Shown one piece after another: positions 38,685-42,849 of a stretch of 64,000 nucleotides of DNA. The stretch is taken from positions 61,756 to 125,755 of IMG/VR virus record IMGVR_UViG_3300035001_000008; one strand, written 5' to 3'. The DNA comes from a virus. The position numbers and the translations under genes are program-made. The notes beneath the pieces were generated by a model. That model saw only the letters and a list, made by a program, of their open reading frames with translations. It was not told the DNA's origin and did not search any database. The number at the start of each line of letters is the position of its first letter. Position 1 is the first letter of the stretch.

Positions 38685-39063
38685 CCTTCACAATCTGAGC
38701 ATTACCGTTTGACTCTCTCATTTTAGTCAATTCGTTATTAGCATCCTTAAGAAAGATACGATACAAGTACTCTAAATCAGAGAATGCACCCTTAAGGGAT
38801 GCATATAAACCGGATTGAGCTTTCTTATTTACATCGTGTAATTCTGAAAAGTAAACCTTATATCGATTTAACTCAATAGCACTTCGCTTACTTTCAGCAT
38901 TTGCATACTGCCTTGAGATTTTGAATAAGGCATTGAATAAACGTAACCAGCTAAAAAAGGCATCGCGTATGTGCGCTGAACATATTTGAATTGATTCACC
39001 GTCTTTAACTACCGTTATACCTTTGGTGTCTAAAAACACTTCTAATTTAATTAAGCGCTTCAT
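38671..39063 (-). CDS. hypothetical coiled-coil protein (130 aa)
   Basis: ATGA-type overlap with upstream gene. Confidence 0.6.
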   Translation of the reverse strand: MKRLIKLEVFLDTKGITVVKDGESIQICSAHIRDAFFSWLRLFNALFKISRQYANAESKRSAIELNRYKVYFSELHDVNKKAQSGLYASLKGAFSDLEYLYRIFLKDANNELTKMRESNGNAQIVKAKQQ

Positions 39064-39485
39064 TGTAAAAGTCCTAAAAATAATCTACAGAGTATGAACA
39101 CACAGACAAAACCTACTAACACCTCTGTTAAGCCTAACAGACAATATTTAAGCCAAAAATGTAGTCGTAGCTTGAATAGGTAATCTTGAGTATTTGAATT
39201 AGTCCAATGGGCATCACTCCATTTATAGTTGTCGGGATGATGCGCCATACCCTTATGTCTGCTGTGATGGTTAAGGCATAAAGGGAATACAGACCAGCCA
39301 GGTACTTCTAAATCAGGTTCAGGGGTATGGCCAAACAAACCACGCTTACCATAGTAGGCATGATGGACGTTAAGCGCCTCAGCACCACATAAGGTACATT
39401 GATGCCTAAGCATTCCATTAACCTGCTTACGGGTCTTAGGCCATTCCTTACCGTAACGTTCTTTCCCTTCATCCGAATAAGTCAT
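39060..39485 (-). CDS. HNH endonuclease-like protein with C-terminal TM helix
   Basis: CTLCG..NVHH..FPLCLNHH; hydrophobic C-terminus. Confidence 0.7.
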   Translation of the reverse strand: MTYSDEGKERYGKEWPKTRKQVNGMLRHQCTLCGAEALNVHHAYYGKRGLFGHTPEPDLEVPGWSVFPLCLNHHSRHKGMAHHPDNYKWSDAHWTNSNTQDYLFKLRLHFWLKYCLLGLTEVLVGFVCVFILCRLFLGLLQ

Positions 39486-39736
39486 GGAACTAACCAGTAA
39501 GATACATTGCTGAAGTATGAATTACAGAACCCACCTTTTAACAGTAGTTCTTTAGGAAGGTCATTAGCTGCTGTCTTAGTACAGAATATGCCCGGTTGTA
39601 TTTCAACCAAGTCAGTATTATTACGCAACCTGTTTAGATTCGATTCTCTATAAGCGAAGCGCTCAACTACTGTAAAACCTACTCCTGCTGTAAAACTGAC
39701 AACAGCTATTAAACTCAAAGCGGTTGATTGTTTCAC
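39482..39736 (-). CDS. small exported or membrane-anchored protein (84 aa)
   Basis: N-terminal hydrophobic helix, two Cys. Confidence 0.6.
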   Translation of the reverse strand: MKQSTALSLIAVVSFTAGVGFTVVERFAYRESNLNRLRNNTDLVEIQPGIFCTKTAANDLPKELLLKGGFCNSYFSNVSYWLVP

Positions 39737-39915
39737 CGGCCCACAAGCTCCATGGCTGTATGCGACGTAGTTAAATCCTCAATAGATGCATTAATTAAAT
39801 TAAAGCTATCCCTTACCGCTGCATCTTGCGTAGCGTTAAGTAGCTCAGTCGATAGGGTTTTAGCCCGGTTAAGAGTGTTTAACAGACTTAGATATAGTTG
39901 AAGATTTTCGTTCAT
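39733..39915 (-). CDS. small helical protein (60 aa)
   Basis: AGGA RBS; promoter TTGCTT-N17-TATAAT at 39970-39942 on minus. Confidence 0.6.
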   Translation of the reverse strand: MNENLQLYLSLLNTLNRAKTLSTELLNATQDAAVRDSFNLINASIEDLTTSHTAMELVGR

Positions 39916-39988
39916 TTAAGTTAGTCCTACTTTTGTTTAATATTATACGGGCAAAGGAACGTTAAAGCAAGTGACGATTTTCAGGATG

Positions 39989-41728
39989 TTAGCGAAGTGT
40001 GACTGTGTAGCCTTCGTTATTTTCCGTAAGCAATTCAATTGACATAGCCGCTGTTATGTACTTAGCGATTGAATCTACTTTTCTGTCCGGTAGAAGACCA
40101 TCACGTAGCCATTTAGTAGCCCAGGCTGAGCTACCTGTAACATCAGAAGCTTTGAATGTATTACCGTGCCCAACCTTTTTAAGGTGCTCCAAAAACCCAC
40201 CTAGACATTGATGTTCTTTTTTAGGTGACGATAACGCTTGCTTAATCACACCATCAATATAATCGGTACAGATAACAGGGTCATCCACAGGTTCACCCAT
40301 TAGGGAATCAAGGTCTACCATATCTCCTAAAAGAGTATCTAGGCTAGGAGCATCCATTAATTGAGTAGCAGCCTTAGGTGTTTCAGCGTCAAGCAAGGAT
40401 AGCTGAGCCGTAGCGATAGAAGGTGTTGTCACATTTTGAGGTTCACTTACCCAAGATCTAGTATCACGGTCATAACCTGAGTAGTTATGCAGCCGGTCTA
40501 ATGGTTGCCATTCGTTATAAAAAATAGCTCGGTCAACTTCTGACTTATCCATTAAATCTTCAAGTGTTTTCATTCCCTCTTCAGGAGATGGTACAAAAGA
40601 AGTATTGATAAATTGAGAAGCTAAGTCTTTGCGCTTTTTAGAGACAATGGCAATAGGCTTAAAGATGGCCCTATCCCCGCCTGTCATTCCCATAGAGCCG
40701 TTGTGGGGAATCTGACCCACACCCCATACATACTTACGTCGGCTATCCCCTGAAGATGATACGCCGATCATAAAAGATATAAAGCTAGCAAATTCTGCTT
40801 TGTCAGTAGACAGAAACTTGCGGCATGTAATAGTCCATTCGTCGATTACATACAAAATATCCTCTGGCGTATCCTTAAACTCTTGAATACGCTCTTTGAA
40901 CCACTTAATATAATCAGCGTCTTCTAATGACTCATGGCTGATACGATGCACTCTATCAAAATGGGTTGTCCAATACCCAGTTTCTTTAGGGTCATTTTTG
41001 GGATCAATGCCGACTACTTTAATACCTGGATTTAACGCTTTAACATGAGCGATAGCATTTGATACCAGCATCCCCTTACCTGCTCCAGGGTTGCCAATAA
41101 TCAGCAAAGACTCTAAGGTTTCTGCCATTTGAACAGGGATAGGCTTTTTAGCTTTGTGAGCAGACCTAACCTCTTGTGTATAGTCTTTGATTACGGTAGC
41201 CGTAGATTGCGGCTGTACTGGCATCTCAGCCTGCCTAGCCTGAATGATTTGGTCTACCACGCTAGGTACTGTGGTATTTTGCTCTACCCATTCATCAGGG
41301 GCTAACGGCTCATTGTAGAAAGCTTCTACATTTTCAGTTAGGTTAACTTGCTCATAATCTGTAAGCCCTGTAGATTCTTCAGGGTTTGATTCTTGCTTAA
41401 CTCTCACAGGCGGGGCTACCTCTACAGTCTCAGGAGTATCGATAACTTCCTCAGCCTCTACAGTAATAGCAGATCTCTTTGCCGACTTTGATTGTTTACG
41501 GCTTGCATACTTAAAATCGTTTATGCCCGCTAACGCTATAGACAAAGCAAAGGCAGGCGCTACAGATAGGCAAATGATAGGAGCTACTACACAACCAATT
41601 ACGCCGACTAGGCCGGGGTGTTGTGTCATGTGGCCAACAAAAAAGGGTTCGTCGCCTAAAGCATATTCATCGTTTAATCCTAGGGTGCTTGCCAACTTAC
41701 CAGCTCCCCCTGATGTTTGAATGGTCAT
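39989..41728 (-). CDS. membrane-anchored P-loop ATPase, VirD4/TraD-HerA-FtsK superfamily (579 aa)
   Basis: N-terminal TM segment, disordered acidic linker, Walker A IIGNPGAGKG, GIDPK, Walker B YVIDEW, GDSRRKYVWGVGQ (conserved Q strand). Confidence 0.8.
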   Translation of the reverse strand: MTIQTSGGAGKLASTLGLNDEYALGDEPFFVGHMTQHPGLVGVIGCVVAPIICLSVAPAFALSIALAGINDFKYASRKQSKSAKRSAITVEAEEVIDTPETVEVAPPVRVKQESNPEESTGLTDYEQVNLTENVEAFYNEPLAPDEWVEQNTTVPSVVDQIIQARQAEMPVQPQSTATVIKDYTQEVRSAHKAKKPIPVQMAETLESLLIIGNPGAGKGMLVSNAIAHVKALNPGIKVVGIDPKNDPKETGYWTTHFDRVHRISHESLEDADYIKWFKERIQEFKDTPEDILYVIDEWTITCRKFLSTDKAEFASFISFMIGVSSSGDSRRKYVWGVGQIPHNGSMGMTGGDRAIFKPIAIVSKKRKDLASQFINTSFVPSPEEGMKTLEDLMDKSEVDRAIFYNEWQPLDRLHNYSGYDRDTRSWVSEPQNVTTPSIATAQLSLLDAETPKAATQLMDAPSLDTLLGDMVDLDSLMGEPVDDPVICTDYIDGVIKQALSSPKKEHQCLGGFLEHLKKVGHGNTFKASDVTGSSAWATKWLRDGLLPDRKVDSIAKYITAAMSIELLTENNEGYTVTLR

Positions 41729-41792
41729 TGTACTTAAGTCCTTATATTAGATAGGCATCCAATTAAGGATGCCTTTATACAGTCTAACCTAT

Positions 41793-42398
41793 TTAATCTG
41801 AGTAACTAGTACTTTTTCCCTTAGATGTGCTAAAGAACAGGATCACCCAAATAAACCCCTCAAAGCTGAGCATGGTTAGAAAGAATTTAACCAACTCGCC
41901 ATATTGGATATAATAGGCTTCCAGTAGAGGAAAGTCGGCAATGATTGCTGAAATACCACCTTCATAAGGCGGATACTCGATGAAGCATACAAGCGCTTCA
42001 AGGATGTATGCGCAACCGGCTAGCCATCGCCGCTTAGCTACCTCCTTCTCATCTGAGGAATTTACCCGTACTCGATTAGCGAAGATCTTTTCGATAATAC
42101 GCGCAGCTTCAGGTGATTCAGTCCCTAGCGCCAATATCTGAAAAAACTGACAGATAGCCATAAGGGCTACAGCCATAATCGATACAAGGTTATTCCAGAT
42201 AAAACTTACAAGCTGTTTAACACCGGGGATAGACATTAGAAAGTTGTCAAACGGCAAACTCACAATGTCTTCGCTAATCCAACGTGCAACACTTACCCAA
42301 GGTTGAACATTAAGCAGAAAGATTAGACCCAGAATAACCCAGATAAAAAACACACCGCCCCAGATAGCAATAGACCCGTTTCCTTTTTTAGTAGTCAT
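41793..42398 (-). CDS. multi-pass membrane protein (~4 TM, 201 aa)
   Basis: Four hydrophobic segments; directly upstream of ATPase. Confidence 0.75.
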   Translation of the reverse strand: MTTKKGNGSIAIWGGVFFIWVILGLIFLLNVQPWVSVARWISEDIVSLPFDNFLMSIPGVKQLVSFIWNNLVSIMAVALMAICQFFQILALGTESPEAARIIEKIFANRVRVNSSDEKEVAKRRWLAGCAYILEALVCFIEYPPYEGGISAIIADFPLLEAYYIQYGELVKFFLTMLSFEGFIWVILFFSTSKGKSTSYSD

Positions 42399-42399
42399 G

Positions 42400-42849
42400 T
42401 TAGTTTCCTTGTTGATTATCGTTGTGTGCGTAGATAGAGCCGGCTTTTACTGTTTCAAAGATTTCAGCAAATTGTTGTTTGTGTTCTGCTGCAATCACAA
42501 TAACTTCTGTAACCACACCATCTTGAGTAATTCCTATCCAACCCAACTCGCTACAAACAGTAGCATCATTTAGAATTACCTCTCCTGTAACAGGTCTTGT
42601 AAACCTCATTCCAGGTTCAAGAATAAAGGGTAGACCCGTAGCTGTATCGATTACGGGCGTGCAAGTTTTAGCAAGTTCTAAAGCGGCTCTAGAGTCTTTT
42701 ACTTGCTCTCTACCATGCGTAGACAAAGACTTTCTTTCTCTACTTAGTTGACCCTGGGTTTGGGTGTCTTGGGCTACTTCTCCAAGCCCACCCATAGAGC
42801 CAAATACACCGAGGGCAATAGCCCCATAAAACATCATTTTGATATTCAT
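42400..42849 (-). CDS. signal-peptide or N-anchored protein (149 aa)
   Basis: MNIKMMFYGAIALGVFGSMGG; Cys pair; AAGGA RBS; 1 nt from next gene. Confidence 0.7.
   Translation of the reverse strand: MNIKMMFYGAIALGVFGSMGGLGEVAQDTQTQGQLSRERKSLSTHGREQVKDSRAALELAKTCTPVIDTATGLPFILEPGMRFTRPVTGEVILNDATVCSELGWIGITQDGVVTEVIVIAAEHKQQFAEIFETVKAGSIYAHNDNQQGN

Follow-up and report, generated by a model that had tools for sequence, protein, structure and literature searches.

Among described DNA-transfer systems, the Tra systems of Streptomyces plasmids offer the closest comparison for the locus considered here. They rely on one membrane ATPase (called TraB, TraA or Tra), which is FtsK/SpoIIIE-like and forms hexamers; it binds the clt locus via its C-terminus and pumps unprocessed double-stranded plasmid DNA (PMC4447253). 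Different Streptomyces plasmids carry different short direct repeats in their clt loci, TraB of pSVH1 reads 8-bp repeats through a winged helix-turn-helix (wHTH), and spread of the plasmid within the mycelium depends on membrane proteins encoded by the spd genes, an operon with translational coupling (PMC4447253). TraA of pWTY27 combines two N-terminal transmembrane segments with an FtsK-like domain and clt binding; its clt comprises 16 bp inside traA and the next 159 bp, with 7-bp repeats (PMC3583192). Here we describe a seven-gene operon encoding a membrane-anchored ATPase in a 64,000-nt stretch of viral DNA (positions 61,756 to 125,755 of IMG/VR record IMGVR_UViG_3300035001_000008; hereafter the window), which belongs to an integrated prophage of a cyanobacterium. 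We tentatively propose that this operon is a phage-borne version of a conserved module acting as a sequence-directed membrane DNA translocase, with cell-to-cell DNA movement as its likely role; our confidence in this reading comes close to an even call but stays slightly below it. No description of the ATPase family, or of such a system in cyanobacteria, was found in the literature.

The seven genes are tightly packed on the minus strand (window 38671-42849). The first of them encodes p149 (42400-42849), an exported or N-anchored protein with a cysteine pair (C63 and C99), followed by the polytopic membrane protein p201 (41793-42398), the transmembrane-anchored P-loop ATPase of 579 aa (39989-41728), the small soluble protein p60 (39733-39915), the small protein p84 (39482-39736), the HNH-type nuclease p141 (39060-39485; CxxC...HH...CxNHH) and p130 (38671-39063), the final gene, which belongs to no known family. 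The stop codon of p149 abuts the start of p201, and the pairs p60/p84, p84/p141 and p141/p130 each overlap by 4 nt, so that the genes are best described as one operon, and not two as in the first-pass annotation of this DNA, which had placed the exported protein and the HNH nuclease in a separate unit. All open reading frames (ORFs) listed in that annotation, including the co-oriented genes for the 149-aa protein, the polytopic protein and the ATPase, are present where it had put them on the minus strand. Its small exported protein is recovered as p84, with an N-terminal transmembrane segment or signal by hydropathy, and its HNH nuclease with a transmembrane tail as p141, which has weak matches to PHROG HNH families (E 4.5e-4 and 3.5e-3) and a C-terminal tail anchor at residues 122-140 by hydropathy. 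Two further descriptions hold in part: the N-terminus of the 149-aa protein, called N-anchored, is signal-like by hydropathy but the signal is weaker, and the protein said to have about four transmembrane segments, p201, shows three clear ones by hydropathy, four being the consensus of its family.

None of the operon proteins scores above the curated cut-offs of Pfam, PHROGs, NCBIfam or PADLOC; p149 has no match at all in these collections, and a Protein Atlas search with p201 was uninformative. Profile comparison places p201 in a family of membrane proteins termed 4TM-A (hhalign probability 98%, E 2e-13, against 11 members; common motifs LNxQP(W/Y) and YPPxExG), which is always encoded directly 5' of the ATPase gene, in 15 genome loci and five viral contigs. 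In contrast to p201, p149 is only a positional analogue of the N-anchored proteins of ~160 aa found in relatives: the spacing of the two cysteines is similar, but homology with this Nanch-A family is not supported (hhalign probability 4%, E 0.01). The closest relatives of the operon, on the P0002 contig and at locus L065, share the window order of p201, ATPase, p84 and HNH nuclease. At L065 the homologues of p201, p84 (located right after the ATPase gene) and p141 are 36%, 62% and 67% identical, respectively, and the P0002 contig has a 60-aa gene at the position of p60 and a 133-aa gene at that of p130. A homologue of p141 also occurs in the phage-like locus L061.

The ATPase carries the motifs GNPGAGKG (residues 212-219), IDPKNDPKE (241-249) and LYVIDE (292-297), as well as Q339 within GQIPH. 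The Walker A, IDPK, DE and Q motifs that had been picked out from the sequence were thus all found, and they are conserved in 39 homologues, among which G215, G217, K218, K244, E249, E297, G327 and R400 are invariant. This set includes the Walker A motif, the Walker B DE and the polar Q after the sensor strand that characterize FtsK-type motors. An AlphaFold2 (AF2) model built on the 39 homologues predicts an N-terminal helical hairpin (residues 38-85) coinciding with a transmembrane region at 39-57 by hydropathy, a disordered stretch (86-189), an ASCE/RecA-like core with predicted local distance difference test (pLDDT) values >90 (190-430), a second disordered stretch (430-480) and a C-terminal domain (485-579; pLDDT >90) of five helices and a beta hairpin (H-H-H-H-H-E-E). 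Within the second disordered stretch lies the peptide QLSLL (residues 442-446, window 40396-40410), which resembles beta-clamp-binding peptides.

Exhaustive structural comparison of the modelled core with VIA-align gave Z-scores of 13.7 for VirB4, 13.3 for STIV2 B204, 13.2 for EccC, 12.9 for HerA, 12.7 for DndH, 12.6 for the E. coli FtsK motor (root-mean-square deviation (rmsd) 3.1 over 187 aligned residues), 12.4 for TcpA and 10.9 for TrwB; the best alignments, from VirB4 to TcpA, have an rmsd of 3.1-3.6 over 179-204 residues. The predicted core fold is clearly that of the FtsK/HerA/VirB4/TcpA class of motors, within which the subfamily is not separable, since Rho and FlaH score equally. A Foldseek search against PDB returned generic RecA-like matches (KaiC, Rho, FlaH, TcpA and FtsK) at E ~1e-4, which do not discriminate among them. 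One of the structural neighbours, STIV2 B204, raises the reading of a packaging ATPase; it was rejected because the phage has a TerL of T4 type and plasmids carry the module too.

At the sequence level, the family stands apart from all of these motors. The FtsK_SpoIIIE model (PF01580) has no match at E<=0.1 in the window ATPase and none at E<=0.01 in the 39 members. Among HerA/VirB4-type models (AAA_10, DUF87, CagE_TrbE_VirB) none is matched by the ATPase at gathering score; AAA_10 (PF12846) reaches 17.2 bits against a cut-off of 27.5, over residues 207-257 only, and is weakly matched by three of the 39 members. ATPases of this type, though similar in structure, lack the layout of transmembrane anchor and wHTH predicted for the module protein. 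The models for type IV coupling proteins (PF02534, PF10412, TIGR03743) are not matched either, SXT_TraD giving 17.3 bits against 366 over 57 residues. Searches of PDB sequences with phmmer and with the family profile returned noise only, the profile matching no FtsK chain. Hence the placement proposed at first, among VirD4, FtsK or HerA, holds for the shared fold class and does not extend to membership in any of these sequence families.

Among predicted models, GntR-type and other winged helices come closest to the C-terminal domain (TM-scores 0.51-0.62 over 65-85 residues). These matches are leads rather than proof of a winged-helix-like domain; modelled without an alignment, the last 98 residues have a pLDDT of only 40.

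All fetched loci were scanned for arrays of hexamers around the ATPase gene. In at least 12 lineages, one hexamer was repeated seven times or more in the 210 nt that follow the ATPase stop codon; its copies run in both orientations, and the arrays start -3 to +11 nt from the stop. A density of at least seven copies per 200 bp has a frequency of 0.0039 in 8268 other intervals of the same loci. The words, 6-7 bp long, are element-specific: GAGAAC (10 copies, L007), CGCCAC (nine in L013, seven in L039), ACGGCA (nine, L016), GGAACA (nine, L020), CTGACC (10, L029-31), CTGACA (eight, L032), CGTGGC (seven, L038), CGGTAA (10, L040), ACACCT (eight, L042), GGGACA (eight, L053) and GCCACA (10, L064, a Fischerella plasmid). 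Two copies of the module in one genome (L020 and L025) have different words. In a Calothrix/Tolypothrix lineage, CGAAAC occurs eight to nine times within the ATPase gene itself, in the part coding for the linker (eight copies at L024:10780-11020), and at L037:4670-4840 the ATPase ORF contains 12 copies of GGTTCA in both orientations, likewise in the disordered-linker stretch. A reading of the arrays as iterons or a replication origin was dropped because the words are short, their orientation is mixed and their spacing irregular.

Related elements were compared to see which part of the module the word follows. The ATPases of L013 and L039, which carry different membrane partners (module versions B and A, see below), have motors that are 40% identical and C-terminal domains that are 76% identical, and share the word CGCCAC; L064 has the same C-terminal type and word. 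Conversely, L013 and L016 have motors 90% and C-termini 53% identical, and their words are CGCCAC and ACGGCA. Among L039, L040 and L042, the motors are 75% identical, the C-termini are unrelated or 42% identical, and there are three different words. In the pair L029 and L032 (motors 87%, C-termini 62% identical), the words are one base apart. Judged from these alignments, the repeat word follows the C-terminal domain and not the motor or the membrane partners, which is the pattern expected of a reader domain and its site.

In the window, the intergenic region 42850-43156 upstream of the operon contains an array of TTGGCA/TGCCAA in both orientations (42879-43078), with 10 exact copies and two GCCAA variants. 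The 10 exact hexamers fall within 197 bp, where ~0.14 would be expected from the rest of the window, and elsewhere in the 125-kb prophage no place holds more than three TTGGCA, so the array is unique in it. It is likely the counterpart of the clt-like arrays of relatives and a candidate cis-acting site. At L067, which belongs to the same sub-lineage, an array of six GTCAAA is likewise located upstream of the three-gene module. One other place dense in TTGGCA (C29:140-4300), ~4 kb of degenerate GGCAC/GGCAT repeats with TTTGGCA spacers on a host contig of 60% GC, was rejected as a counterpart; it is an unrelated GGCAC simple repeat. Upstream of the array and the operon there is a promoter-like site with an extended -10 element (TGGACA-N17-TG-TAAAAT, 43122-43150, minus strand; 10/12 consensus matches with TG), which is a consensus match only, such sites being no more frequent in this region than in shuffled sequence.

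The module is widespread among mobile elements of cyanobacteria. A word-indexed search yielded 98 relatives of the ATPase, all unnamed, and those with a taxon are all cyanobacterial. A motor-core profile retrieved 709 cluster representatives (clustering at 50% identity), 272 of them at E<=1e-30; the sole sampled cluster with a taxon name is from Mastigocoleus. All of the 40 loci in one-genome-per-species contigs are cyanobacterial, from Leptolyngbya, Phormidesmis, Leptothoe, Calothrix, Tolypothrix, Nostoc, Nodularia, Scytonema, Rhizonema, Iningainema, Hassallia and Oculatellaceae, and one is a metagenome-assembled genome labelled 'uncultured Synechococcus'. In PLSDB, the family is present on 23 of 72,556 plasmids, all from filamentous genera, including pCC7120alpha of Nostoc PCC 7120 and, from Fischerella, a plasmid of 24.5 kb that was typed as non-mobilisable. 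The pCC7120alpha module (L063:6978-9924; NC_003276.1 48311-51257) encodes proteins of 137 and 234 aa and a 606-aa ATPase (WP_010999624.1), all annotated as hypothetical. Nine IMG/VR contigs also have the family, two of them together with Terminase_6N, and the module further occurs on integrative elements with integrases and replicases. In contrast, tblastn of the ATPase against 50,697 INPHARED phages gave no match. Named relatives are thus essentially confined to filamentous cyanobacteria and mobile elements; a survey of filamentous against unicellular hosts, proposed with the original reading, finds the named hosts almost all filamentous (40 loci and 23 plasmids).

A gene for a small membrane protein lies directly 5' of the ATPase gene in nearly all loci, and three versions of the module can be distinguished. 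Version A, to whose 4-TM family p201 belongs, consists of an N-anchored protein of ~160 aa, a protein with four transmembrane segments of ~235 aa and the ATPase; version B has proteins of 139 and 235 aa before the ATPase; and version C has proteins of 185, 182 and 98 aa, the last with two transmembrane segments. Homology between the 4TM-A family and the 235-aa family of version B is not supported (hhalign probability 0.4%). A nuclease is attached to some version A modules: in four elements a T5orf172 (GIY-YIG-like) nuclease with a C-terminal transmembrane segment adjoins the ATPase (L002:9561-10001, L005:9597-10004, L034:10950-11378 and L061:11029-11499). In the window and at L065 the HNH nuclease with its transmembrane tail stands at this place, and L061 has both, which looks like non-homologous replacement of one membrane-anchored nuclease by another.

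Taken with the arrays, this anatomy suggests how the module might work. The ATPase would be held in the cytoplasmic membrane by its N-terminal transmembrane hairpin, and its winged-helix-like C-terminal domain would dock on the element's own array (in the window, TTGGCA at 42879-43078). The FtsK/HerA-type motor, presumably assembled as a ring, would then pump the double-stranded DNA of the element through the membrane, in a direction that is likewise presumed. The polytopic p201, together with p149 and the exported or anchored p84, may form the envelope part of the machine, where the HNH nuclease with its tail anchor may process DNA at the membrane. Most probably the module would serve to deliver phage or element DNA, without virions, into the next cell of the filament or into another cell in contact, and such cell-to-cell spread is plausible.

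The likeness to the Tra systems of pSVH1, pWTY27, pIJ101 and pJV1 is extensive. Both have one ATPase with an N-terminal transmembrane anchor, a motor fold of the FtsK/HerA class and a C-terminal domain of winged-helix type (predicted for the module), small membrane proteins encoded in a coupled operon, no relaxase, and a multicellular filamentous host. Like clt, the arrays of the relatives consist of element-specific repeats of 6-9 bp that run from the 3' end of the gene, and an element-specific repeat array in cis, at or beside the gene, is present both in the window and in the 12 or more lineages described above. To our knowledge, Streptomyces Tra is the only single-ATPase conjugation system for double-stranded DNA, and the anatomy of the module matches it. 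The differences are as clear: there is no detectable sequence homology (no FtsK_SpoIIIE match in the 39 members), neither p149 nor p201 is related to Spd proteins, the host belongs to a diderm phylum, the module comes with a membrane nuclease, and in the window element the array lies upstream of the operon and the carrier is a 125-kb tailed prophage. On present evidence, the module would work like Tra/clt but is not a member of the Tra family. The analogy with TraB and Spd that had been drawn earlier is thus strengthened by arrays that track the C-terminal domain, and loses its Spd half, at least as far as homology of the partners is concerned.

Several observations weigh against a sequence-directed translocase that moves DNA between cells. 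The ATPase is not a member of the FtsK_SpoIIIE, TraG/VirD4, HerA or VirB4 sequence families, and in the structural comparison Rho and FlaH tie with the FtsK/HerA-type motors at Z 13.2. The wHTH assignment of the C-terminal domain rests on predicted models and short alignments, and its co-variation with the repeat word could be explained by simple linkage, since array and 3' gene end lie side by side. Furthermore, no 3' array is found in the TrwC-linked version C modules, in pCC7120alpha or in several version A elements bearing T5orf172. The window array itself is located upstream of the operon, beside partition genes, and could instead be a centromere or the operator of a ribbon-helix-helix (RHH) protein. 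No outer-membrane or peptidoglycan-crossing part has been identified, although cyanobacteria are diderm. Finally, segregation or membrane anchoring together with actin-like partition genes would explain the same anatomy.

The last of these points leads to the alternative that survives best, although we regard it as unlikely: that the ATPase serves vertical inheritance, binding a centromere-like array and, with an actin-like protein (ALP) filament and an RHH adaptor, anchoring or pumping DNA at the membrane or septum, so that both daughter cells keep the element or its replication occurs there. The operon is immediately preceded, on its own strand, by an actin-like partition unit (43157-45064), composed of an ALP/ParM-like protein of 355 aa (43997-45064; ALP_N E 5.4e-12, partition phrog_691 E 3.8e-20), an RHH protein of 97 aa (43697-43990; RHH_1 E 0.0014) and p114 (43157-43501), all on the minus strand. 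An actin-like ATPase with a small RHH adaptor beside a repeat locus is the arrangement of type II (ParM/ALP) partition systems. An ALP gene ~4 kb 5' of the ATPase gene, on the same strand, is found at nine loci from ~7 lineages (the window and ~6 others), and the window order of ALP, RHH, p114, array and module is the same in L043. Linked to the module more often than ALP is the small RHH-like gene c33; homology of the window RHH protein with c33 is not supported (hhalign probability 5%), and p114 has no hhalign match to c22. A precedent exists in prophage CGP3, where the actin-like AlpC, working with the adaptor AlpA, transports viral DNA and is required for it to replicate efficiently (PMC4446434, PMC5539076). 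Centromeres, too, consist of arrays of short repeats, which vary together with the protein that binds them, and FtsK and SpoIIIE are segregation pumps themselves. The module ATPase shares with the latter the membrane anchor, the long disordered linker, the RecA-like motor and the IDPK-type motif after the second strand; their C-terminal gamma wHTH reads the short words KOPS (FtsK orienting polar sequences) and SRS (SpoIIIE recognition sequences), and the module has a predicted wHTH-like domain at this place. However, it lacks a sequence match to them, its motor of ~240 residues has no recognisable alpha domain, it is carried by mobile elements, and its words are clustered in one array, whereas FtsK words are spread and polarised along the chromosome. 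Segregation is further disfavoured by the majority of loci, which have the module without an ALP gene, many of them with ParA/ParB instead; by the position of the arrays at the ATPase stop codon and not beside the par genes; by the membrane nuclease (HNH or T5orf172), which has no obvious partition role; and by the host's own FtsK.

A different assignment, to which we give little credence, would make the ATPase a divergent type IV coupling protein that hands single-stranded DNA with its bound relaxase to a secretion or pilus apparatus whose genes lie elsewhere. Version C modules lie 3-7 kb from a TrwC relaxase gene of ~1080 aa and a ParA-like gene at six loci (L001, L004, L010, L011, L014 and L015), so in this plasmid subgroup the ATPase may act as a coupling protein. 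These six are marine Leptothoe/Phormidesmis-type plasmid contigs with TrwC, DUF6753 and ParA-like genes. The N-terminal transmembrane anchor is typical of the class, TrwB/VirD4 and TcpA of pCW3 being transmembrane-anchored ATPases of hexameric type from mobile elements, and the weak local SXT_TraD and AAA_10 matches and the Z-score of TrwB point the same way. Nevertheless, the curated models are not matched, the all-alpha domain is lacking, and the class is not known to carry a wHTH domain or a private repeat array; the relaxase-linked subgroup is precisely the array-less one. Five module-bearing genomes have 1-5 TrwC genes each and no PF03135-type VirB4. In the host genome of the window (99.97% complete), a search for four families, TrwC (PF08751), MobA/VirD2 (PF03432), VirB4 (PF03135) and VirD4 (PF02534), found none, which extends to the whole genome the first-pass observation that the window holds no relaxase or VirB4 and leaves the ATPase without a secretion system or relaxase of these families elsewhere in the genome. 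The ATPase family itself is present there in a single copy.

Equally improbable is a role in defence or superinfection exclusion, in which the membrane ATPase and the membrane nuclease would capture and destroy incoming DNA at the envelope: its appeal lies in the pairing of a HerA-like-fold ATPase with a transmembrane-anchored nuclease (HNH here, T5orf172 elsewhere), in HerA-nuclease and HerA-Sir2 defence complexes among the structural neighbours and in the presence of the module on both prophage and plasmids, but the ATPase has only local Walker-A-level matches in PADLOC-DB 2.0 (E 9e-4 to 5e-3) and the other seven proteins have none, so that no anti-phage HerA-type model is matched beyond noise, the module lies in the replication/partition backbone and beside relaxases rather than in variable islands, several copies per genome occur on separate replicons, and an element-specific array on the element's own DNA is hard to square with a weapon against foreign DNA.

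If the module does move DNA between cells, it would bear on how cyanobacterial plasmids move, a gap in their biology. In a survey of 424 such plasmids, 88% were predicted to be immobile and 6% had a relaxase without VirB4 or VirD4 (PMC8600333). The unannotated family described here, with its 709 clusters at 50% identity, is carried by plasmids, integrative elements and phages of filamentous cyanobacteria. A bolder version of the proposal, which we hold to be doubtful though worth stating, is that a temperate tailed cyanophage spreads both by virions and, without lysis, by a Tra/clt-like pump for double-stranded DNA, either along the host filament or into touching filaments, and that the pump family is the missing transfer machine of cyanobacterial plasmids without a type IV secretion system. 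The Streptomyces plasmid-phage pZL12, whose conjugal transfer needs a major tra gene, differs in phylum and protein family, and the window element is integrated. Were the proposal true, a phylum that is both diderm and multicellular would have a functional equivalent of Streptomyces-type conjugation, tailed phages would be able to spread with no need of virions, and there would be a handle for DNA entry into filamentous cyanobacteria that are hard to transform. The idea can be tested directly with the homologues from the Fischerella plasmid, which has a clear array, and from pCC7120alpha, a plasmid of the model strain Nostoc PCC 7120; since C-terminal domain and word co-vary, DNA binding is predicted to be specific and swappable.

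The element carrying the operon is an integrated tailed cyanobacterial prophage and not a plasmid in the present assembly; of the terms used in the initial description, cyanophage applies and phage-plasmid is not supported. The window lies in contig C36, within an island of ~125.5 kb and ~39% GC (C36:106025-231555) inside a genome of 5.9 Mb and 56% GC. Perfect 122-bp direct repeats containing part of a tRNA-Phe gene flank the island (C36:106025-106146 and 231434-231555); attR is ~1 kb past the end of the window, and L051:7996-8068 is listed with the att repeats. A tyrosine integrase gene adjoins attL (L051:8300-9463; phrog_1, E 1.5e-39), and a lambda-J-like tail protein is encoded at L051:11982-14330 (E 2.6e-184). 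In addition to the T4-type TerL, the prophage encodes PolA, a primase-helicase, a ribonucleotide reductase and a beta clamp (DnaN, 61688-62797). The RpoB domain of the host is 86-90% identical to those of Phormidesmis, Leptothoe, Leptolyngbya and Nostoc. As a siphovirus-like cyanobacterial prophage, the element is unusually large.

Several other genes of the prophage deserve mention. A type IV pilin-like protein with a class III signal (MNKGFTLIELMVV...) and PHROG pilin matches is encoded convergently with the operon (37805-38254, plus strand); this gene is not kept beside the module in relatives. A GIY-YIG/NUMOD3 homing endonuclease gene (9284-10198, minus strand) is located immediately upstream of TerL, and a second homing endonuclease, of HNH type, is encoded at 35131-35907 (minus strand). 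Finally, CapR homology domains are present in two prophage proteins, encoded at 26178-27032 (plus strand) and 47560-48615 (minus strand).

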